In this document: positions 4,817 through 45,107 of the stretch, piece by piece
Position numbering within the stretch: position 1 is the stretch's first letter
How the letters are laid out: each line of letters starts with the position of its first letter
Source: a virus
Taxonomy: Duplodnaviria > Heunggongvirae > Uroviricota > Caudoviricetes
Length of the DNA: 61,430 nt
Strand: one strand, 5' to 3'
Virus record (IMG/VR): IMGVR_UViG_2663762648_000013
Notes under the pieces: generated by a model
Databases searched by the model: none
What the model was told of the DNA's origin: nothing
What the model saw: the letters and a program-made list of their open reading frames with translations, nothing else
Translations under genes and position numbers: made by a program

Positions 4817-7800
4817 ATGAGTGTGGCGACATTACGTGAACTGATTATTAAAATCTCGGCAAATTCCCGGTCATTCCAGTCAGAGATCTCCCGGGCTTCG
4901 CGTATGGGGCAGGATTACTACCGTACCATGCAGAACGGAGGCCGGCAGTCCGCTGCTGCATCCCGTGAAATGCGGCGTGCACTGGCAGAAGTGACGGATC
5001 AGATAAATACAGCTAAATCTTCGGCACTGAATATGGCGGGGGCATTTGCCGGAGCTTTTGCTACCGGTCATCTTATTTCTCTCGCCGATGAGTGGAATTC
5101 AGTAAATGCCCGTCTGAAGCAGGCTTCACAGTCCAGTGATGATTTTCAGGTATCACAACGTGAATTAATGGCAATCAGCCAGAGAACGGGAACGGCGTTT
5201 TCTGATAACGCCAGCCTTTTTGCCCGCTCTGCAGCTTCCATGCGGGAGTATGGCTACAGTTCTGAGGAGGTACTGAAAGTCACCGAGGCGATCTCCACGG
5301 GCCTGAAATTATCCGGTGCCAGTACAGCAGAAGCCAGTTCGGTGATCACGCAGTTCAGTCAGGCACTGGCGCAGGGAGTGCTGCGCGGTGAAGAATTTAA
5401 CTCTGTGAATGAGAACGGCGATCGTGTTATTCGTGCGCTGGCTGCGGGAATGGGTGTTGCCCGTAAGGATCTGAAGGCCATGGCGGATAACGGAAAACTG
5501 ACCGCCGATAAGGTTGTTCCTGCACTGATTAGTCAGCTTGGGGCGTTGCGTGATGAATATGCAGCAATGCCTGATACTGTTTCATCCTCTGCAACCAAAG
5601 TTGAAAACGCCTTTATGGCCTGGGTTGGTGGTGCGAACGAGGCAAGCGGAGTGACAAAGACACTCACCGGGGTGTTGAATGGTGTTGCAGACAATATTGA
5701 TACCGTGGCTGCTGCAGCTGGCGCACTGGTTGCCGTCGGGGTAGCCCGATATTTTGGCAATATGGCGTCGTCTGCTGGATCTGCAACTGCCGGATTAATT
5801 ACTGCAGCCAGAAACGAAGTGGCTCTTGCTGAAGCGCAACTTCGGGGGACACAGATAGCAACCGCCAGGGCGCGTGCGGCGGTTTATCGTGCGCAACAGG
5901 CGGTTGTTGCTGCTCGCGGTACCGAAAGGCAGGCCGCAGCAGAAGCGAAGCTGACAGCTGCCCAGGCGTCACTTACCCGTAATATTGCGGCCAGAACAGC
6001 GGCACAGACAACGCTGAATACTGTCACGTCAGTGGGGAGTCGTCTGTTAAGTGGTGCGCTGGGGTTGGTTGGTGGTGTGCCGGGACTCGTCATGCTGGGG
6101 GCGACGGCCTGGTACACGATGTATCAGAATCAGGAGCAGGCCAGAGAATCTGCACGCCAGTATGCCGCAACAATCGACGAAATTCGCCAGAAAACGTCGG
6201 CAATGTCGCTTCCTGAAGCGTCAGATAATGAGGAAATGACGCGGCAGGCACTTGATGAGCAAAACAGGTTAATTGACGAGCAGAAAAGTAAGATTAAATC
6301 CTTACAGGAAAAAATTGCTGGCTATCAGTATGTGCTGGCAAACCCGGGCTGGACAACCGATAACGGTTTTATGATTAACCACATGACGTCGGTAAAAACT
6401 GTCACAGAAGGGCTTGCAGAAGCAACAAATCAACTGGCAGTTGAACAGTCCCGTCTCACACAAATGCAGGGCAAAGCGCAATCCATTCAGGATGTGCTTG
6501 CCGGGCTGGAGGAGCGACGGGTGGCGTTGATCCGTCAACAGGCCGCGGAACAAAACAAAGCGTATCAGTCCCTGTTGATCATGAATGGGCAGCATACCGA
6601 GTTTAATCGCCTTCTCGGGCTCGGTAATGAATTACTTCAGCAGCGACAGGGGCTGGTGAATGTACCGTTACGGCTACCACAGGCAACCCTGGATGATAAA
6701 CAGCAGACTGCACTGAATAACAGCGAGCGCGAACTGGCTCTGTCCCGCCTGAAGGGGGAAGCCCGTGAGCGTGCCCGCTTGGGTTATGCTGCGGATGATC
6801 TCGGCTTTGTGGGAGAGGCGTATCAGACAGCCAGGCAGAATTATATCAATAACTCACTGGATGCCTGGCGAAATAACCAGGCAAATAAACCCAAAGCGCA
6901 TAAAAAGACCGAAGCGGAAAAAACAGAAGATATTTATAAACGGCTGATTAAACAGCAAAAAGAACAAATAGCACTGGCAGGGCAGAATACTGAACTGGCT
7001 AAGATGAAATATCAGGTCAGTCAGGGCGAATTATCAACCCTGTCAGAAGCGCAGAAAAAAACGCTTTTGCAGAATGCAGCACTCATCGACCAGAAAAAGA
7101 TTCGTGAGCAGCTTGCTGCGTATGAGAGCAGTCTGGCGGACAGTAATGCCAGTGCCCGGGCATCTGACGAAGCGCAGTTGTTGGGATATGGTGAAGGCTC
7201 ACGGATGCGTGAACGACTCCAGGAAATGTGGAGTATCCGGCAGGCGTTTGAGCAGAAAAATAACGAGCTGCTGAGACAGTATCAGGCCGGAGAAATTGAA
7301 GAAGCCCTGTGGAAACAGGAGAAAGAACTGAATAAAAAATATCTGGAAGAGCGTCTCAGCGATCAGCAGAATTATTATGCAAAGGCCGATGCTTTACGTA
7401 ATAACTGGAATGCCGGACTCCAGGAGGGACTGACCAACTGGGCAGACAGTGCCACCGATTATGCTTCACAGGCGGCAGATGCTGTCGTTTCCACGATGGA
7501 CGGGCTGGTATCAAATATTTCCGATGCACTGGCCGGAAATGTTGTGGACTGGAGAAACTGGGGGAGTTCAATTCTCCAGGAAGTTTCAAAAATTCTGATG
7601 AACGCTGCCATCGTTAACGGGCTGAAGTCACTTTCCAAAAGCATGTCCGGTGCCGGAGGATGGCTTGGTACAGTCGGCGACTGGCTTTCCGGTGCAGTGG
7701 CAAACGCAAAAGGTGGTGTTTACACATCGGCAAATCTGAGTGCTTACAGTAACACTATTGTGGATACACCGACGTATTTTGCTTTTGCGAAAGGTGCCGG

Positions 7801-32199: not shown

Positions 32200-32664
32200 T
32201 TACTTTAAACACTGCTCGGTTATGTATTGCTGAGCACCTTCAAGTTGGGCCTGCATCATTACCAGTCGTTCCCGGAGGGTGAAATAATCCCGTTCAGCGG
32301 TGTCTGCCAGTCGGGGGCTGGTTGCATTATCCACGCCGGAGGCGGTGGTGGCTTCACGCACTGACTGACAGACTGCTTTGATGTGCAACCGACGACGACC
32401 AGCGGCAACATCATCACGCAGAGCATCATTTTCAGCTTTCGCATCAGCTAACTCCTTCGTGTATTTTGCATCGAGCGCAGCAACATCACGCTGACGCATC
32501 TGCATGTCAGTAATTGCCGCGTTCGCCAGCTTCAGTTCTCTGGCATTTTTGTCGCGCTGGGCTTTGTAGGTAATGGCGTTATCACGGTAATGATTAACAG
32601 CCCATGACAGGCAGACGATGATGCAGATAACCAGAGCGGAGATAATCGCGGTTACTCTGTTCAT
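32200..32664 (-). CDS. i-spanin Rz
   Basis: N-terminal TM helix then coiled coil; ATG overlaps endolysin stop (ATGA). Confidence 0.75.
32259..32444 (-). CDS. o-spanin Rz1 lipoprotein, embedded in Rz in an alternate frame
   Basis: 61-aa ORF with lipobox LVVVGC and proline-rich mature part. Confidence 0.7.
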
Positions 32665-33158
32665 TGCTGACCCCACAAACAGATTTCACGCTCAATCTCA
32701 CGACGAGTCATGAGACCTTTCCATTGCTTACCGCCAGCATATGTCCAGCGACGTAGCTGGTCACATGCGCCTTTGATATCGCCCTGGTTTATTTTGCGAA
32801 GAAGCGTCGATGTTCTGAAATTGCCAGCGCCCACGTTGTAAACGAACGAGTAAAGAGCGCCGCGCGTTGTTTCCGGTATATCGACTTTGATGTACGGGTT
32901 AATTTGTCTGGCGACAGTGGCAAGGTCTTTATTCAAGAGTGTTTTGCATTCTGCTTTGGTATACGTTTTACCGAGCATGATGTCTTTTCCTGTATGCCCG
33001 TGACATACAGTCCATACACCAACAATATCTTTGTATGGTATGTAGCTGACACCTTCCAGACCATCGTTACCACTTGGGCCAGTGATTAACACTGATGCTA
33101 TAGCAATTGCTCCGCCACCAATAGCAGCAGCAACGACTTTTCGTAATGATGGAGGCAT
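32661..33158 (-). CDS. SAR endolysin (phage 21 R-type lysozyme)
   Basis: N-terminal Gly/Ala-rich signal-arrest-release helix ([18 protein letters not shown]) then lysozyme catalytic region. Confidence 0.85.
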
Positions 33159-33373
33159 TATTCACCTCTCGCAGCCTTGCGCTTATCTTCTTTAATCTTG
33201 AAATAAAGGTTTGTCAGGTACGTCAGCAGGCCAAATACCAGACTACCCAGCACACCGATTGCAGCCCACTGTGACGGAGTTACTCTATCGAGCAACTGTA
33301 AAAACCAGTAGCCAGCACTGCCTGCGGAGGTGCCATAGGCAATGCCCGTTGAAATTTTGTCCATGGATTTCAT
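33158..33373 (-). CDS. pinholin (S21-like), dual-start motif MKSMDK
   Basis: ORF 33158-33430; start set to ATG 33373 preceded by GGAGGTGA; two TM helices; matches phage 21 S. Confidence 0.8.
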
Positions 33374-33474
33374 AGCCTCACCTCCGCACGGAACGGATGG
33401 CATAGTTATTATGTGTAGGCTTTCAGACACATCAATCAGAGCCTTAATTGATATATATGCTGGAGACGATGCAA

Positions 33475-33499
33475 TATAAAAAGCTCGCCGTAGCGAGCT
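33475..33499 (-). terminator. rho-independent terminator downstream of lipoprotein gene
   Basis: Minus strand AGCTCGC-tacg-GCGAGCT followed by TTTTATA. Confidence 0.45.
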
Positions 33500-33624: not shown

Positions 33625-34020
33625 CTAACCTCGCATGTCAAAGCCAGATTTCTGAAAATCTCTGTAGACTTCCGGATTGTTGAAGGCCGGAAATTTGGCT
33701 TTATGAGCTGCGGACTTTATCGCTTCGCAATAGGCTTTATCACCGTTACTGGTAGATATTTTTAACGCCGTGCCATCCTGAGAGAATTCCATATGCAACC
33801 TGCATTTTTTCCCTTTCCAGTTATGCGGCTCATCAAGTTTGGCATTAATTGCAGCTCTGATTCCCCGCGCTTGCGCCCCCCATTCATCCTGATCATCCCA
33901 GCGTCCTGAACTGCAACTACCTGTAGCAGTAGTTTTGTGGCAATCTGAAGGGTGTAAAGGTGTGCATCCCGCAACAAAACCGACCCAAAAAGTCAACATA
34001 ACGATTTTCTTTAATCCCAC
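33625..34020 (-). CDS. lipoprotein with TolA C-terminal (domain III)-like fold
   Basis: Signal peptide plus lipobox VAGC; C-terminal half aligns by eye with the second copy and with E. coli TolA domain III. Confidence 0.6.
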   Translation of the reverse strand: MGLKKIVMLTFWVGFVAGCTPLHPSDCHKTTATGSCSSGRWDDQDEWGAQARGIRAAINAKLDEPHNWKGKKCRLHMEFSQDGTALKISTSNGDKAYCEAIKSAAHKAKFPAFNNPEVYRDFQKSGFDMRG

Positions 34021-34170
34021 TTCTTGCTCCTCAATCCATTAAAATCTCAGCAATAGTAGTTGTTACGTCCGCCACTGGCTCAGAGCTGACTATCCGCTAA
34101 ATTTAGCTCAGTGCCGTAGCTGTGTCAGAACAAACCTAAGCCGAAACCGTTTATTACAAAACAATAAATA

Positions 34171-34599
34171 TCAGGGTTTAAAATCCAGCACCCCATTTTG
34201 AAATACTTTATATACTTCCGGCGAAGGGGGGGCAGGTATATCAGCATTCTTTATCGCATTCATCGCTTCACGACATAAATCGAGGTCTCCACTTTCTCTT
34301 TTAACCTCCAGTAGAAGGCCATTCGGGGCCATATGCATTCTCAGTGTACACTCTTTTCCTGAATACTTACTCGCATCCCCGAACTGTTTTTCGATGGCGC
34401 TCTTGATTTGATGGGCATACAGACGGATATCCTCACTAACATCAGAAGTACGTTCAGATGAACTCACATACTGTGTCTCTATTGCTTTATCGGAGTAATA
34501 TGATGTACGGTCATGATAATTTGTCGATACAGCATCAGTGCACCCGATAATAATCCCACTAATAATCAACGTAAGAATTGATGCGCTACGAAAACCCAT
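34171..34599 (-). CDS. lipoprotein with TolA C-terminal (domain III)-like domain
   Basis: Lipobox IIGC; YAHQIKSAIEKQF...KECTLRMHMAPNGLLLEV...IPAPPSPEVYKVFQNGVLDFKP closely parallels the TolA C-terminus as I recall it; GAGGAA SD. Confidence 0.7.
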   Translation of the reverse strand: MGFRSASILTLIISGIIIGCTDAVSTNYHDRTSYYSDKAIETQYVSSSERTSDVSEDIRLYAHQIKSAIEKQFGDASKYSGKECTLRMHMAPNGLLLEVKRESGDLDLCREAMNAIKNADIPAPPSPEVYKVFQNGVLDFKP

Positions 34600-35185
34600 T
34601 TTTCCTCACATATGTCATATAGTAAAGGATTATATATACCGTTGTTTTGGACGCTCAAACAGCGAATCAGATCAAATAAAACGCACATTTGTTAACATTT
34701 ACACAAAGTCTGCGTGGGATATTCTGAAAGAATATCCATAATGTGGAGAGAATCTATTGAAGTGCATGGTGCTGGGTGCCTCCCGGTGAACAAAATGTTC
34801 GTGATACCTGTCGGCGACAGAAAAGGTTAATGGTATCACCCCACCGCACAGGGGGATTCACCATGCAGGAGTTTTCTTAGCAAACTCACTGCGCGCCCGG
34901 CAACTCCCAACCACATAAAATGCGGAGTTTGTGGCATTTATGCATATAACTCGCAGGAATTATCTTAAAAAACTGATGTCGATCCGGATTAAAAAGAAGC
35001 AGGTCATCATCAGATGACTGGAAAAAAGGAAAACAAAAAATACTCATCATACAGTTTTGATTGCAGGGATGAGCCTGCTATGCACAATATGCAGAATATA
35101 AGCAAGATAAAAATATGCAGGCATATTATTTCGGATCTTGTTATTAACACAACCTTTTTAATAATCATTTGGCATACAATAAACC

Positions 35186-35216
35186 AGCCCAAAAAGAACC
35201 GCCTAAACAGGCGGTT
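35186..35216 (-). terminator. rho-independent terminator (candidate tR'-type) downstream of Q
   Basis: Minus strand AACCGCC-tgttta-GGCGGTT followed by CTTTTTGGG. Confidence 0.45.
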
Positions 35217-35536
35217 GGTCAATACAAAGGATGCTTCGTCTTTATTATAGTAATCTGAGGCGTCGGGTGTCTTGTATCAGACAACATATTGTCCCGCTAA
35301 ACAGCGAATTACAAACCACCCTGCAATGATCTCTCATCTCATTTTATATGAGTTGACGACATCAGGATAACGCATCATCAGCCCCTGCCAAGAAATATCA
35401 AAACTCCCGCCAGCAATGTGTTATCACAATATTGTAAAAAAAACACAGCACCGAAACTATAACTGGTCTCTGTTATAATTTGGAGCAGAAAGACCAGTTG
35501 CCCAACTAGCAGCATTCTCCCCTGCTTTCCTGACGT

Positions 35537-35563
35537 AAAAAAACCGCATTAAGCGGTTTTTTT
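35537..35563. terminator. bidirectional terminator-like palindrome just downstream of Q
   Basis: aaaaaaaccgc-attaa-gcggttttttt, perfect palindrome flanked by A and T runs. Confidence 0.5.
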
Positions 35564-35643
35564 ACGATGTCCATGTCTGCAATCCGCCTCGCGATACAGC
35601 TTTGCGAAGCATAGCAAAATTGAAGCAGTTTATACGTAAGAAA

Positions 35644-36186
35644 TCAAGCCATTTTCTCAGCAAATGATTCACGCATGGGAATATATAGGGCATACTCAGC
35701 AACAGCTAACCAATTAGCAATCCGTTTTTCGCATGTGCTAAAACACCACTCTGGGTGTGCATCATTTAGCAATTCAGCCATTTTGCGCTTAGTCATCCCC
35801 CGCCCTTCATAGCGTTGCCGGAGAATGCAAATCAATCCTGGATGCTCTGCCAGCACCTCACTTATGACTCGATCAATACATAACGCCTCTGCATCAGTAC
35901 AATGCGCCAGCCAGCTCTTTTGCTTGCCGTTGATCATCTCTCGCAAAAACGCTTCCAGCTCAGCTTTCTCTATTCCCGCTTTTTTCATTCTGCGCAGGGC
36001 TTCATTAATGGCTGTTTTCGTCAGTTTTTTGGATGCCAACAACTGATTGAACATATTCCCTGACCTGCCACCGCCAATATACGACCAGCGCCCCCACATA
36101 CGTAGTTTTCCCTGAATCCAGACACTTTCCAGCGTGGTGAGGCGAAGGTGTTCTCCGCTTTTTCCTGTATTCGTTGGGTAAATCAT
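35644..36186 (-). CDS. late-gene antitermination protein Q
   Basis: 180-aa ORF upstream of the lysis cassette; family assigned by recollection and position. Confidence 0.65.
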   Translation of the reverse strand: MIYPTNTGKSGEHLRLTTLESVWIQGKLRMWGRWSYIGGGRSGNMFNQLLASKKLTKTAINEALRRMKKAGIEKAELEAFLREMINGKQKSWLAHCTDAEALCIDRVISEVLAEHPGLICILRQRYEGRGMTKRKMAELLNDAHPEWCFSTCEKRIANWLAVAEYALYIPMRESFAEKMA

Positions 36187-39861: not shown

Positions 39862-40884
39862 TTAAAATTCATGAATGAACGGTTTGTCATCTGGTTGCAA
39901 AATGGTGGTTTTATTCGTTGCTACATTTAAACTGTTGTAGAGCATAATTGCCAGGTTCGATGCATTTTCAATCAGCGTTTCAAGATCCTGGTCTGTAATC
40001 ACTACGAGGTTCCCTTCTTTATCCTTTCCACCACGATGCACTAAGTGATTTCGATTGAGGGTTGCCAATTCAATAGCTTCTATCGGACAGTCTTTTTGTA
40101 CTTTTATATCGAATGTAGCTTCATAGCGGTCGATTACCTTTTTAGTGCTATGCCAGCTTGCACTGATCAAGTGTTCCTTGATTGACCTGATTAGCTCTCC
40201 CCTAATTTTCTCGATGGGTTCACCCTTGAAAGGCAACGCAGCAATATCTTTGCTTACTTTAAATTCAGTCTTACCTTTTTCTATACAATTGGCTATGTAG
40301 ACATCATCTTTCTCTATAGAATTAATGAATAGCTCAACATAAAGCGTTTCCAAAGCTGTAATAACATTCGTGTAGAGCAAACTAAGCAAGTGGTTTTTTT
40401 GCTGTTGTTCAGTTTTATCTTTTGCAAGTTTTTTTATTTTATCGATATTATCAATGAATTTTAAATACGGATTACCGGAAGACGTTACAGCGTCGTAGAT
40501 ATCATCATCGTACCAATCATCTATATTATTTGAGTTTCCAGACCAGTCAAAACATTGTGTTTGTAATTCATCTACTAATTCCTCAATATACTCAGATTTA
40601 ACATATTGACCGAAGATGGATTGTAGTTCTTCGCTCGCATCATACGGCCCGCCATATATGTAAGCATAGCCACCTTCTCTACTTTCATACGGACAAGCAT
40701 TTGCCGGATCTTCAAAGTTTTCAAAGAACCAGTTTTTCATTACTTCGAGTTGATCTTTTTTGCTTATGTATTTTAAAGATTTTAGTGGAACTTTCTTTCC
40801 ATTAACCTCGAAAACAATTTTCACGATGTAACGCTCCCTTGTATCAATTGCGCAACTATTATACCACAGCGAAATACAGGGCAT
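39862..40884 (-). CDS. hypothetical protein A (340 aa) with HEPN-type RNxxxH motif; first gene of candidate accessory cassette
   Basis: ORF 39862-40953; start set to ATG 40884 preceded by AAGGAGG; motif LNRNHLVHRGG at 40027-40053; low GC. Confidence 0.65.
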   Translation of the reverse strand: MPCISLWYNSCAIDTRERYIVKIVFEVNGKKVPLKSLKYISKKDQLEVMKNWFFENFEDPANACPYESREGGYAYIYGGPYDASEELQSIFGQYVKSEYIEELVDELQTQCFDWSGNSNNIDDWYDDDIYDAVTSSGNPYLKFIDNIDKIKKLAKDKTEQQQKNHLLSLLYTNVITALETLYVELFINSIEKDDVYIANCIEKGKTEFKVSKDIAALPFKGEPIEKIRGELIRSIKEHLISASWHSTKKVIDRYEATFDIKVQKDCPIEAIELATLNRNHLVHRGGKDKEGNLVVITDQDLETLIENASNLAIMLYNSLNVATNKTTILQPDDKPFIHEF

Positions 40885-41022
40885 AACCTGCCTCCTTAAA
40901 CTAACATACCATGAGCCAGCAATGTCCGCTATTGGCACAAAGCGGACAACCACGCTAGCTCTCCCCTGTGCCAGAAAAATGTCAATTTACATATGAACTA
41001 ATGCTCTTTGATCTAGTAACGT

Positions 41023-41439
41023 CTATAAATACCGAAGATTTCCTTGATAAAATGCCAGTACACGTTTCATAACTTCACTCTTCCGGCACTCGCGACAGAT
41101 TATGTTCTGACGCCTGTCATAGCGGCGTATTTCTCCGTCTGGTAATGACCAGATAAGGTCAGGATCAACCACAACCGTTTTTTTCACCTTTGCCCTGGAT
41201 AGTTTTTTGCGGGCGTTTTTCCAATCCTTACGAGCCTGTTCAGACGGGAATAACCCGTAGCCAGAGTTGTATACATCCCCACTGGCAACCAGCTCTCTGG
41301 CGAGAACGCTTATTAAATATCTTGTCGCCCCGGTTTTAGCTTCCAGTTGTCGTAACGTCTCGCGCCCACTCTGGCGTACGAGTTCAACAACCTGCCCCTT
41401 AATTTTTTCCCGCTCTTCCTGTGTAAATACTTTTGCCAT
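41023..41439 (-). CDS. winged-helix DNA-binding protein (138 aa), prophage early region
   Basis: N-terminal HTH-like segment; C-terminal CRECRK; three diverged paralogues in window. Confidence 0.55.
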   Translation of the reverse strand: MAKVFTQEEREKIKGQVVELVRQSGRETLRQLEAKTGATRYLISVLARELVASGDVYNSGYGLFPSEQARKDWKNARKKLSRAKVKKTVVVDPDLIWSLPDGEIRRYDRRQNIICRECRKSEVMKRVLAFYQGNLRYL

Positions 41440-41454
41440 AAGCGCCCCCGGCAA

Positions 41455-42180
41455 TCACTTTTCCGACACAATACGACCGGAGGAATCGACAATCTGTCGA
41501 ACAATATCCCGGTGCTTGTTCAGCTCCCGCAACGCGGCGCAGACACGCTCCCACTTCTGGACATGACTTTTCGCCCGACGCAGTTCGCGGTTTGCCATAT
41601 GCAGCGATGGTAAAACCAGGTCATCCGCTTGCGTTTCGGTGAACGATGGCAACGACTGCACAATGTCCGCCACAGTTTCTGTTTTAATTTCTTCCTGTGT
41701 TGCAGCTTCCTGTACCGGTAACGCAACACCTGCTGGCTGAGGAAAGACTTTACCATCCGTTTCCGCTATGGATGCGGCTTTCGGCTCTGCCGGTAAATCA
41801 GCGCCCGGTATGCAGTACCGAAATTTACCGCCCTGATTCACGCGAATCAGACGCCCTTTGCTGATTGCCATGGCCAGCGATGAATTCGCCCGGCGGGAGG
41901 TAATCCCGAACATCAGTGCCAGCTCATCCGCCGTTTGTGGGCCATGTTGTTCAATCGCCTCAGTCAGCATTTGCGCTGTCACTTTCGGTACCGGTGACAC
42001 TGGTTCACTTTCACCAGCCTGAATCAGCCACCACATCGAACCCTTGTTATCCGCTTCACCACGGCGCTTCAGTTTCCACAGTTCGTTGACCGCATCTTCA
42101 CGGCTGATTCCAAGGCGGGACGCCACCACATGTGAAGAGGCTCTTTTCAGTGCTTTCAGTGCGTCAAATACAGTTTCCAT
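41455..42180 (-). CDS. prophage early-region protein (241 aa, winged-helix repeats)
   Basis: ORF 41455-42198 trimmed to ATG 42180 preceded by GGAGGA; paralogue at 43577-44338. Confidence 0.5.
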
Positions 42181-42198
42181 TAAAACATCCTCCAACAA

Positions 42199-42391
42199 AA
42201 ATTACTTCACAACTCCCGGAAAGCTGACATTTGAACGCCAGCTATCCCAGTTAAACGTCACCCACCGACAACCGTTCATGGTCATGCGGTCCATAATCCT
42301 CTCACCAAGAAGCGTGCTCATTGCGGCATGATTCAGGTTTGTTAACATCCCGACACTGCACAGTGATGCTGTCCGGCGATCAATTATCTGG
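42199..42391 (-). CDS. DnaC-like helicase loader, C-terminal fragment (diverged allele; truncated at N 42392)
   Basis: Minus-strand translation parallels the C-terminus of the ydaV-like genes. Confidence 0.4.
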
Positions 42392-42392
42392 N

Positions 42393-43006
42393 TTACCTTT
42401 TTCTATACAATTGGCTATGTAGACATCATCTTTCTCTATAGAATTAATGAATAGCTCAACATAAAGCGTTTCCAAAGCTGTAATAACATTCGTGTAGAGC
42501 AAACTAAGCAAGTGGTTTTTTTGCTGTTGTTCAGTTTTATCTTTTGCAAGTTTTTTTATTTTATCGATATTATCAATGAATTTTAAATACGGATTACCGG
42601 AAGACGTTACAGCGTCGTAGATATCATCATCGTACCAATCATCTATATTATTTGAGTTTCCAGACCAGTCAAAACATTGTGTTTGTAATTCATCTACTAA
42701 TTCCTCAATATACTCAGATTTAACATATTGACCGAAGATGGATTGTAGTTCTTCGCTCGCATCATACGGCCCGCCATATATGTAAGCATAGCCACCTTCT
42801 CTACTTTCATACGGACAAGCATTTGCCGGATCTTCAAAGTTTTCAAAGAACCAGTTTTTCATTACTTCGAGTTGATCTTTTTTGCTTATGTATTTTAAAG
42901 ATTTTAGTGGAACTTTCTTTCCATTAACCTCGAAAACAATTTTCACGATGTAACGCTCCCTTGTATCAATTGCGCAACTATTATACCACAGCGAAATACA
43001 GGGCAT
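42393..43006 (-). CDS. second copy of cassette protein A, N-terminal part only (truncated at N 42392)
   Basis: Identical in translation to 40271-40884 including the upstream AAGGAGG. Confidence 0.5.
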
Positions 43007-43144
43007 AACCTGCCTCCTTAAACTAACATACCATGAGCCAGCAATGTCCGCTATTGGCACAAAGCGGACAACCACGCTAGCTCTCCCCTGTGCCAGAAAA
43101 ATGTCAATTTACATATGAACTAATGCTCTTTGATCTAGTAACGT

Positions 43145-43561
43145 CTATAAATACCGAAGATTTCCTTGATAAAATGCCAGTACACGTTTCATAACTTCAC
43201 TCTTCCGGCACTCGCGACAGATTATGTTCTGACGCCTGTCATAGCGGCGTATTTCTCCGTCTGGTAATGACCAGATAAGGTCAGGATCAACCACAACCGT
43301 TTTTTTCACCTTTGCCCTGGATAGTTTTTTGCGGGCGTTTTTCCAATCCTTACGAGCCTGTTCAGACGGGAATAACCCATAGCCAGAGTTGTATACATCG
43401 CCACTGGCAACCAACTCTCTGGCAAGAATGCTCATCAGATATCTTGTCGCACCTGTCTTGGCCTCCAGTTGCCTTAACGTCTCGCGCCCACTCTGGCGTA
43501 CCAACTCAACAACCTGCTCCTTAATTTTTTCACGCTCTTCCTGTGTAAAAACTTTTGCCAT
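43145..43561 (-). CDS. winged-helix DNA-binding protein (paralogue of 41023-41439)
   Basis: 143-aa ORF, near-identical protein. Confidence 0.55.
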   Translation of the reverse strand: MAKVFTQEEREKIKEQVVELVRQSGRETLRQLEAKTGATRYLMSILARELVASGDVYNSGYGLFPSEQARKDWKNARKKLSRAKVKKTVVVDPDLIWSLPDGEIRRYDRRQNIICRECRKSEVMKRVLAFYQGNLRYL

Positions 43562-43576
43562 AAGCGCCTCCGGCAA

Positions 43577-44338
43577 TCACTTTTCCGACACAATACGACT
43601 GGAGGAATCGACAATCTGTCGGACAATATCCCGGTGCTTGTTCAGCTCCCGCAGCGCGGCGCAGACTCGCTCCCACTTCTGGACATGATTTTTCGCCCGA
43701 CGCAGTTCGCGGTTTGCCATATGCAGCGATGGTAAAACTAGGTCATCCGCTTGCGTTTCGGTGAACGATGGCAACGACTGCACAATGTCCGCCACAGTTT
43801 CTGTTTTAATATCTTCCTGTGTTGCCGCTTCCTGTACTGGTAACGCAACACCGGCTGGCTGAGGAAAGGCTTTACCATCAGTTTCCGCTACCGATGCAGC
43901 TTTCGGCTCTGCTGGTAAATTATCGCCCGGCATGCAGTAACGAAATTTACTGTTCTGGTTTACGCGAATCAGGCGTCCTTTGCTGATTGCCATTGCCAGC
44001 GTTGAAGCAACTTTGCGGGATGTTGTACCGAACAGCGTAGCCAGTTCATCCGCCGTTTGTGGTCCGCGTTGTTCAATCGTCGCGGTTAAATCGCACTCTG
44101 AGATTTTCACTACAGTTGCCGTGGTGGTTTCTTCCGGCAGTTCTGCCTGCATTGGCTGTTCCTGCTGAACGTTGTTATCAGCCACACGCCAGGTGTACGC
44201 GCTTTTATCAACGAAACCAGCTTTTTTCAGTTCCCATAGTTCGTTCAGCACTTCTTCACGACTGATATCAAGTCGCGCAGCAAGTTCTATGGATGTGGCT
44301 TTTCCCATTGCTTTCAGTGCGTCAAAAACAGTCTCCAT
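43577..44338 (-). CDS. prophage early-region protein (253 aa, paralogue of 41455-42180)
   Basis: ORF 43577-44389 trimmed to ATG 44338 preceded by GGGAGGA. Confidence 0.5.
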
Positions 44339-44360
44339 AAAAATTTCCTCCCGGTAAAAA

Positions 44361-45107
44361 TTACTTCTCAATTCCTGGCTGGACGACATTCGGACGCCAG
44401 CTCTCCCAGTTAAAATTCACCCATCGCCCGCCGTTCATGGTCATGCGATCCATAATCCGCTCGCCGAGCAATGTTTTCATGGCCTCATAGTTCAGGTTTG
44501 TCAGCATCCCCACGCTGCGCATCGACGCTGTCCGGCGATCAACAATCTGGTGCAGCACCACCTGCTCGTTTTTCGTCTCGCGCTGAATGCCAATTTCATC
44601 AAGAACCAGCAGATCCACTTCGCATAGTTCCCGCAAAAATTTTTCGCCTGACTGCCCATCGTCATAGCTGGCGTGCAGGGCACTCATAACATCAGCCACG
44701 GTAACCACAATCACTGTCTGACCGTCTTTCAGCAGGCGATTCCCGATAGCTGCCGCTAAGTGGTTCTTCCCGGTACCAGGTTTTCCGCTGAACGCAAAAT
44801 TTGTACACCCGGTCATCAGTTCATCAGCGATGGATTTCGCCTGACTCAACGCGTATCGCTGCGCTTCGTTCTGCACCTGGTAATTCGAAAACGAGCATTT
44901 GCGGTGCAATGGCTGGATGCCAGAGCGATTCAGAATTTTTTCCACCCGCAACTGGCGATTCAGGCGGTTGATCTCCTCGCTACGTTTCTGGCCTTCAGCA
45001 AGTTGCCACTCGCGCCACTCCGCTACCGTTCTGAATGGGGCGGTTACATGTGGCGGGGTCAGTCGGCGGATGCGTTCCAGAACGCCGCCTGTCGCAATAT
45101 TTTTCAT
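44361..45107 (-). CDS. DnaC-like replication protein / helicase loader (YdaV-like)
   Basis: Walker [14 protein letters not shown] and Walker B LLVLDEIG. Confidence 0.85.

Follow-up and report, generated by a model that had tools for sequence, protein, structure and literature searches.

Two lipoprotein genes with a TolA domain III

The DNA analysed here is IMG/VR virus record IMGVR_UViG_2663762648_000013, a stretch of 61,430 nucleotides (nt) that is referred to as the window throughout. On its minus strand lie two neighbouring genes for small proteins of 142 and 131 amino acids (aa), each of which consists of a signal peptide, a linker and a copy of domain III of the host protein TolA, the domain on which group A colicins and filamentous phages all dock. 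The element holding the pair is the Rac prophage of Escherichia coli, found as near-identical DNA in many strains. Here we describe the two genes and weigh the possibility that their products act as decoys for such invaders.

34171..34599, minus strand: 142-aa lipoprotein gene, open reading frame (ORF) with ATG start; signal peptide, linker and TolA domain III copy (residues ~51-142)
33625..34020, minus strand: 131-aa lipoprotein gene, ORF with GTG start; signal peptide, linker and diverged TolA domain III copy (residues ~40-131)

Both signal peptides comprise a basic n-region and a hydrophobic core and end in a lipobox, which reads IIGC in the 142-aa protein (Cys20) and VAGC in the 131-aa protein (Cys19). 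The ORF limits and the lipoboxes are those given in the initial annotation of this DNA, whose observations we could confirm in all particulars. Hereby, Thr occupies position +2 in both proteins, and a lipobox with a residue other than Asp at +2 is kept throughout both families. By the established +2 rule, such a non-Asp residue after the lipobox cysteine indicates Lol-dependent sorting to the outer membrane. Since Thr and not Asp is found at +2, both proteins are predicted to be outer-membrane lipoproteins sorted via Lol. The GTG start of the 131-aa ORF is favoured over the 124-aa call of NCBI, because a DNA alignment shows ATG at the same codon in the plasmid homologues; PGAP starts this gene at an internal ATG and thereby drops the Lys-Lys n-region of the signal peptide. 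The plus strand beneath the two genes holds only ORFs of 40-71 aa without support, and a tblastn search of the window found no third TolA domain III copy.

Pfam family PF06519 (TolA_C, cutoff 25 bits) matches residues 49-140 of the 142-aa protein (E 2.4e-23, 82.6 bits) and residues 44-125 of the 131-aa protein (E 1.3e-14, 54.6 bits). Above threshold, Pfam assigns only TolA and TonB_2 to the two proteins, and a But2 match (E 0.15, under its cutoff) was dismissed as chance. In phmmer searches of PDB sequences, the 142-aa protein aligns with E. coli TolA 334-421 (E 5e-28; 52/88 identical, 59%), and the 131-aa protein with TolA 341-419 (E 5e-9; 27/79 identical, 34%). In the AlphaFold2 models the N-terminal 40-50 residues are disordered, including linkers of 20-30 residues (~30 in the 142-aa protein), while the domain is modelled with a predicted local distance difference test score of ~90. 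According to Foldseek, the 142-aa model superposes on the TolA domain III crystal structure 2x9a_B with a root-mean-square deviation (rmsd) of 0.7 A and a template modelling (TM) score of 0.95, and the 131-aa model on structure 3qdp with an rmsd of 1.1 A and a TM score of 0.92. The cysteines that form the disulphide of TolA domain III (C363, C388) have equivalents in both proteins and are invariant in the family. Alignment and structure modelling thus bear out the likeness to TolA domain III that the initial annotation had noticed, including its view of the 142-aa protein as a near copy and of the 131-aa protein as a diverged one.

Compared to E. coli TolA (421 aa; domain III, ~334-421, is represented by structures 1TOL, 1S62, 3QDP/3QDR and 2X9A), both proteins share the fold and the disulphide pair, and the C-terminal beta3 strand is nearly identical in the 142-aa protein. 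They lack, however, the transmembrane domain I and the helical domain II, lie outside the tol-pal operon, and are predicted to be held by a lipid anchor in the outer membrane, whereas TolA is held by a helix in the inner membrane. In line with this, matches to hidden Markov models of whole TolA are confined to profile positions 293-386 of 387 and 265-362 of 362, and the domain II region is without a match. Both proteins fail model NF007065 (cutoff 213; 107.8 for the 142-aa and 53.7 for the 131-aa protein); at TIGR02794 (cutoff 59.45) the 131-aa protein fails with 47.2, and the 142-aa protein passes with 75.6 on domain III alone. As domain I, domain II and the tol-pal operon context are lacking, both proteins are best classed, by sequence, with Pfam TolA_C but outside the TolA family proper. 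Because domain III alone passes the TIGR02794 cutoff, PGAP names the 142-aa lipoprotein 'tolA: cell envelope integrity protein TolA', which overstates the identity of a protein that has only domain III. Both genes are already annotated by domain (PGAP/NCBI) and are neither rare nor unannotated; PHROG 5772 is listed as function unknown. Homology to described exclusion or defence proteins (Llp, Cor, catalogued systems) was not found via Pfam, PHROG or PADLOC.

The initial annotation had further described the pair as tandem paralogues. Two TolA domain III genes do lie side by side, but identity between their products is no more than 29% and the two families differ in distribution, which rules out a recent tandem duplication; the pair represents two separate lineages. 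A recent capture from E. coli tolA is not supported either, given that the protein most similar to E. coli TolA shares no more than 59% of its residues with it. A word-indexed protein search returned no full-length TolA proteins.

Genomic position, distribution and selection

Between 37072 and 32200 the minus strand carries, in this order, genes for DUF1367, YbcO and a DUF1133/Q-like protein, ~1 kb without ORFs, the two lipoprotein genes, a P21-S-type holin, lysozyme, Rz/Rz1 and trkG. The Q-like gene heads the late operon that contains the cassette. The features relevant for the position of the pair are as follows.

35644..36186, minus strand: Q-like late-gene regulator, DUF1133 (PF06576, 2.5e-107; Phage_antitermQ PF06530 marginal, 26.1 bits against a cutoff of 26)
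34629..34658, minus strand: sigma-70 promoter-like site TTGAGC-18-nt-TATAAT (consensus scan, 10/12 matches)
34021..34170, minus strand: intergenic spacer between the two genes, with a weak promoter-like site at 34128-34100
33482..33499, minus strand: intrinsic-terminator-like hairpin AGCTCGC-TACG-GCGAGCT with TTTTTAT behind it, separating the 131-aa gene from the holin gene (terminator scan)
33158..33430, minus strand: P21-S-type holin, first gene of the lysis cassette (PF04971, 4.5e-35)
32661-33158, minus strand: lysozyme, ORF directly after the holin gene (PF00959, 1.8e-45)
32200-32676, minus strand: Rz/Rz1, ORFs after the lysozyme gene

The promoter-like site has a perfect -10 element and four of six matches in the -35 element; the GAGGA ribosome-binding site and the ATG of the 142-aa gene follow ~25 nt downstream. 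The hairpin at 33482..33499 would presumably not stop a polymerase modified by Q. Bracketed by these consensus matches to a promoter and a terminator, the pair appears to have a moron-like layout within the late operon. Patchy presence (1/50,697 phage records) and homology that ends at the cassette borders are moron features. In lambdoid phages the late region is a known site for cargo, with stx lying between Q and S and with bor and lom as morons; the pair occupies the same slot, after Q and before the holin gene, although the cargo there is an exported toxin or adhesin and here a mimic of a host protein in the cell's own envelope. That this is the cargo slot of Stx phages, as had been proposed initially, is corroborated by a 66%-identical relative of the 142-aa protein which occurs alone in other lambdoid prophages, in the order Q (PF03589) - TfpB - AraC-like - tRNAs - [gene] - NanS-p - DUF1378 - DUF826 - holin.

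The 142-aa gene is present in 888 of 5,426 complete E. coli genomes (782 at >=99% identity), and its family occupies 950 chromosomal places and 2 plasmid places in these genomes. The 131-aa gene is found in 1,269 of them (~23%), in 784 at >=99% identity, which matches the tandem, and in a further 525 plasmid places at ~88% identity. Hereby, the tandem accounts for ~14% of complete E. coli genomes, with ~780 genomes carrying both genes at >=99% identity. A single phage record out of the 50,697 holds the genes, namely mEp460_ev081, with both of them between Q and holin; its DNA match to the window stops at 34790, upstream of the cassette. A mEp460-type phage is known as a viable temperate isolate from infant-gut E. 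coli (PMC6969025).

Members of the 131-aa family are 80-88% identical across genera and occur on ~600 plasmids. Homologues of ~88% identity lie after psiB-psiA-hok and before toxB on pO157-type IncF plasmids (pTA112, locus L003, 5965-6396) and directly downstream of the relaxase gene on IncK/IncI-type plasmids (IncK2/Z plasmid pSH15sh104, locus L005, 5965-6396). These plasmid sites adjoin the leading region or the relaxase gene. In Enterobacter, Citrobacter and Serratia the family is represented by a lone gene at unrelated chromosomal sites, which in Enterobacter lies between gpx and ridA-like genes (>15 similar places). On a Serratia chromosome (locus L020, 5001-7736) the lone gene sits between nrdDG and genes for GmrSD_N and HEPN (MAE_28990/RiboL-PSP) proteins, a small neighbourhood resembling a defence island. 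DNA homology of the 131-aa gene starts ~45 nt upstream of the start codon and stops at the stop codon, so that the last ~45 nt of the spacer, including a GAGGAG ribosome-binding site, accompany the gene into plasmids and other genera. Homology limited to the gene borders, together with a new neighbourhood in each genus, is typical of a mobile cassette.

When 1.84 billion cluster representatives were searched exhaustively with HMMER, 130 homologue clusters were obtained at E <= 1e-3. Among them are 69 complete proteins of 100-170 aa; a lipobox is present in 52 of these, never with Asp at +2, and many short homologues finish in an FKNAPLDFKP-like motif. Short lipoproteins with a TolA domain III thus form a broad class. 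One further form is found on Klebsiella ColRNAI plasmids of the cloacin type (~10 kb), which carry an E3-like immunity gene, a lysis gene and a 123-aa TolA domain III lipoprotein (lipobox LTAC, C-terminus NAPLDFRP). The stop codon of the lipoprotein gene overlaps the start of a gene for a 121-aa secreted TonB_C protein, as on K. pneumoniae plasmid pKP2509-5 (NZ_CP065951; locus L004, 1510-2243). The Klebsiella protein has the same architecture and also resides on a mobile element, but it is only ~27% identical to the 131-aa protein over the aligned part, is paired with TonB_C and not with a second TolA domain III, and belongs to a bacteriocin plasmid. The Klebsiella pair fills the slot in which CloDF13 has the unrelated genes K and L. 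The idea that CloDF13 K and L might themselves be a TolA/TonB-like pair linked to insensitivity to male-specific phages was dropped, as the K and L proteins of NC_002119 are unrelated.

Across Rac, plasmids and three genera, the ratio of nonsynonymous to synonymous substitution rates (dN/dS) of the 131-aa gene is 0.07-0.17 at dS 0.5-1.1. Its linker, with dN/dS of 0.02-0.10, is at least as constrained as the domain and contains the strongly conserved Cys/Trp/acidic sequence PLHPSxCHKTTAxGSCSSGRWDDQDEWG. In the 142-aa family the linker evolves much more freely (dN/dS 0.59) than the domain (0.24). The cassette is moreover intact in a copy of the cryptic Rac prophage whose lysozyme gene is split by IS2. 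Because of the purifying selection and of this intact copy, both genes can be regarded as functional and not as debris. The opposite view, namely that the genes are tolA fragments caught by illegitimate recombination and passively kept in a decaying prophage, could draw on the defective state of Rac in this lineage and on the several truncated or frameshifted copies among the database clusters. Both ORFs are intact, however, and each has gained a lipoprotein signal peptide and a ribosome-binding site; dN/dS lies well below 1 at the dS given above, the disulphide cysteines of the domain are invariant, and ~780 genomes share both genes nearly unchanged. We thus consider debris a highly improbable explanation.

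The same data bear on the possibility that the proteins, and the 131-aa family especially, are envelope paralogues of the housekeeping type. Each would then be an ordinary accessory lipoprotein whose partner is the cell's own, for instance TolB, CpoB or a factor connected with peptidoglycan or lipoproteins. It would tune the envelope under some stress, and its presence in Rac would be incidental hitch-hiking without a connection to colicins or phages. The conserved position between gpx and ridA-like genes in Enterobacter fits this explanation, the constraint on the 131-aa linker suggests a specific partner, and the classical TolA docking edges are diverged in the 131-aa protein (see below). 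Against it stand the different neighbourhood in each genus with homology ending at the gene borders, the 80-88% identity across genera and ~600 plasmids, and the defence genes that adjoin the Serratia copy. We regard such a housekeeping role as unlikely.

Docking surfaces and possible function

Ligands dock on TolA domain III by adding a beta-strand to one of two edges (PMC4339652, PMC3365938, PMC7391070). Hereby, beta3 (A415-K420) is used by g3p N1, colicin N and the N-terminus of TolB, with the backbone amides of D418 and K420 being critical, and beta2 (L375-P380) is used by colicin A, which in addition makes cation-pi contacts to K368, K379 and K396. The corresponding residues in the two proteins are as follows.

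beta3 edge: TolA APLDFKP; 142-aa protein GVLDFKP; 131-aa protein SGFDMRG
colicin A beta2 edge: TolA LLDIKP; 142-aa protein LLEVKR; 131-aa protein ALKIST
cation-pi positions K368/K379/K396: TolA K, K, K; 142-aa protein H, K, K; 131-aa protein E, S, H

The 142-aa protein retains D418 and K420 as its residues D139 and K141, as well as two of the three cation-pi lysines, and on these grounds looks able to bind all TolA domain III ligands. In the 131-aa protein both edges are changed and the linker is strongly constrained, and it therefore probably has a different or additional partner. As one candidate for the role of the linker we considered SSGRWDDQDEWG as a mimic of the colicin TolB box DGSGWSSENNPWG. 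The Trp spacing is off by one residue, however, and in the AlphaFold2 model residues 40-50 already form the beginning of the domain, so that this idea is one of low probability.

The explanation that we prefer, with confidence evenly balanced for and against, is that the proteins are unenergised competitors for TolA ligands, tethered at the outer membrane, which give tolerance to group A colicins and filamentous phages. According to this decoy model, the flexible linker would let an isolated TolA domain III project into the periplasm, right below the porins and pilus channels where colicin translocation domains and g3p enter. Because both proteins lack the domain I anchor and the long helical domain II, coupling to the TolQR motor is impossible, and the copies can do no more than bind. 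They would thereby compete with host TolA for those ligands that dock on domain III by beta-strand addition, i.e. g3p N1, group A colicins (A, N) and the TolB N-terminus. Invaders bind TolA more tightly than TolB does, by ~40-fold when colicin N (1 uM) is compared with TolB (40 uM) (PMC4339652), so that a modest amount of decoy could suffice to catch them with little harm to Tol-Pal. If expressed in the lysogen, the pair would give it tolerance to Tol-dependent colicins and filamentous phages. With both known docking edges kept, the 142-aa protein would be the likely general decoy, while the 131-aa protein would probably serve the different or additional partner.

Three aspects of the distribution favour such a host-protective role over one that is specific to lysis. 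Members of the family also occur where there are no lysis genes; some reside on plasmids that encode pili serving as receptors of TolA-dependent phages, the IncF and IncI pili being the primary receptors of the phages Ff and If1; and on bacteriocin plasmids a TonB domain accompanies the TolA domain III. Group A colicins exploit the transducer TolA and group B colicins the transducer TonB, and both domains are found together on the Klebsiella cloacin-type plasmids. The initial annotation had proposed that TolA domain III mimics block Ff-type phages and group A colicins or else modulate Tol-Pal, and the comparative data favour this functional proposal, which we likewise infer and do not observe.

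The dominant-competitor logic of the decoy model has a laboratory counterpart. Levengood-Freyermuth, Click and Webster (J Bacteriol, 1993) are said to have obtained tolerance to group A colicins, along with leakiness, by exporting TolA domain III to the periplasm. Their product was an overproduced, soluble laboratory construct, whereas the proteins described here are natural, mobile, lipid-tethered and present in two diverged versions. The same g3p-TolA step is saturated in the periplasm in g3p-mediated exclusion, where g3p N-domains block Ff infection (PMC3102678); this is the mirror image of the mechanism proposed here, as the receptor is filled by a ligand there, whereas here the ligand would be captured by a receptor copy. 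Another parallel is provided by small phage lipoproteins at the periplasmic face of the outer membrane. Llp of T5 and Cor of phi80 and N15 are outer-membrane lipoproteins that block FhuA, and the proteins of the Rac pair would likewise protect against other phages and colicins. Llp and Cor plug an outer-membrane receptor, however, and are unrelated in sequence, while the proteins described here mimic a periplasmic co-receptor domain.

Several observations weigh against the decoy model. The 131-aa protein is without all three lysines that make the colicin A cation-pi contacts and its beta3 edge is altered, so that binding to the classical ligands may be lost altogether. Nearly all members of the 142-aa family lie between Q and holin (950 chromosomal versus 2 plasmid places), and from this position a function in lytic growth is no less plausible than one in the lysogen. 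If the decoy bound TolB, this alone could produce a tol-like defect. The promoter and the terminator are consensus matches only, and for a relative at locus L015 terminators were found downstream but no convincing promoter upstream. PADLOC has no model or hit for either protein. In the literature on prophage- or plasmid-borne TolA-like lipoproteins, decoys, morons, CloDF13, pO157 and IncI we found no functional study of this family, and an O157 array paper names tolA only as a colicin-related gene, with no tie to the prophage copy.

The strict Q-holin position of the 142-aa family also keeps alive an alternative in which Tol-Pal is antagonised during lytic growth. Here, a Q-dependent burst of tethered TolA domain III would titrate the TolB N-terminus, halt the mobilisation of Pal and loosen the outer membrane, resulting in faster spanin-mediated lysis or in more vesicles at burst. 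The step involved, an unpowered competitor, is the same as in the decoy model, but the ligand is TolB and the beneficiary is the phage. In line with this alternative, the family lies between Q and holin in two unrelated late-region architectures and almost never elsewhere, the viable temperate phage mEp460_ev081 has the tandem in this very slot, the beta3 site conserved here is the one used by TolB, and tol mutants hyper-vesiculate (PMC7391070). On the other hand, nothing is missing from the lysis cassette, which has holin, signal-anchored lysozyme and Rz/Rz1; the genes are absent from most lambdoid phages, as the single phage record illustrates; the 131-aa family is common on plasmids and chromosomes without lysis genes; and the cassette is intact in the defective, non-lysing Rac prophage with its IS2-interrupted lysozyme gene. 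The weak affinity of TolA for TolB (40 uM) would furthermore demand high protein levels. Taken together, we judge Tol-Pal antagonism rather unlikely, although it is the main rival of the decoy model.

Returning to the decoy model, the Rac pair may be part of something wider, which we put forward as a tentative suggestion. Mobile elements of enterobacteria, namely prophages and conjugative or bacteriocin plasmids, could carry a so far unrecognised envelope defence, in which TolA domain III lipoproteins and secreted TonB C-terminal domains, unpowered versions of the parts with which the two energy transducers bind their ligands, serve as periplasmic receptor mimics against Tol- and Ton-dependent colicins and pilus-specific filamentous phages. 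The tandem would then combine a generalist (142 aa) with a specialised version (131 aa), whose Cys/Trp/acidic linker would provide a second epitope, possibly for TolB.

If the decoy model holds, a horizontally spreading TolA domain III would constitute a new route to tolerance, based on periplasmic receptor mimicry instead of loss or blocking of a receptor. Consequences would follow for the ecology of colicins in the gut, for the use of colicins and pilus-specific phages against plasmids or pathogens, and for the host range of M13-type tools. If the proteins are Tol-Pal antagonists instead, they would modulate outer-membrane stability and vesiculation in nature. The genes are common, with the tandem in ~14% and the 131-aa type in 23% of complete E. 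coli genomes, including plasmid pO157 of enterohaemorrhagic E. coli and many IncI/IncK/IncF plasmids. Their absence from K-12 probably explains why they have escaped functional study. In the Rac prophage of K-12 MG1655 (1,422,752-1,423,782), ydaW is followed by a truncated rzpR and then trkG, and the Q-like gene, both TolA-like genes, the holin gene and the lysozyme gene are missing.

Further features of the window

In the lysis cassette (32661-33430, minus strand), the N-terminus of the lysozyme resembles a signal-anchor-release (SAR) segment and stands beside a P21-S-type holin, so that the cassette looks like one of the pinholin/SAR-endolysin type.

Upstream of the pair, a full-length match to the Rfam small RNA STnc100 (34710-34896, minus strand; 79 bits, gathering score 47) lies ~110 nt before the 142-aa gene. 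Its 3' hairpin is without the consensus U-tail. STnc100 is also found in mEp460_ev081 (locus L002, 4700-4890; 114 bits, gathering score 47), and at locus L015 a hairpin like the STnc100 3' terminator sits downstream of the TolA-like gene (6612-6631). Weak isrK-like matches (35482-35610) and a weak match to STnc350 were disregarded, as they scored under their gathering scores.

Approximately 370 nt downstream of the Q-like gene, the region 35185-35273 (minus strand) contains a promoter-like AAGACA-18-nt-TATAAT and, within ~30 nt, a strong terminator hairpin AACCGCC-TGTT-TAGGCGGTT with a T-run. This region is a candidate late promoter/terminator pair for Q action.

At some distance from the late region, a 300-nt repeat of 100% identity occurs at 40271-40570 and 42393-42692, 2.1 kb apart, with more diverged flanking repeats (75-79%). 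The ORFs of this region (39862-40953, 41023-42198, 42380-43075 and 43145-44389) include duplicated DUF977 and DUF1627 ORFs. The same 40-44 kb region holds a full (363 aa) and a shorter (231 aa) copy of a protein with a weak match to a HEPN/RES N-terminal domain.

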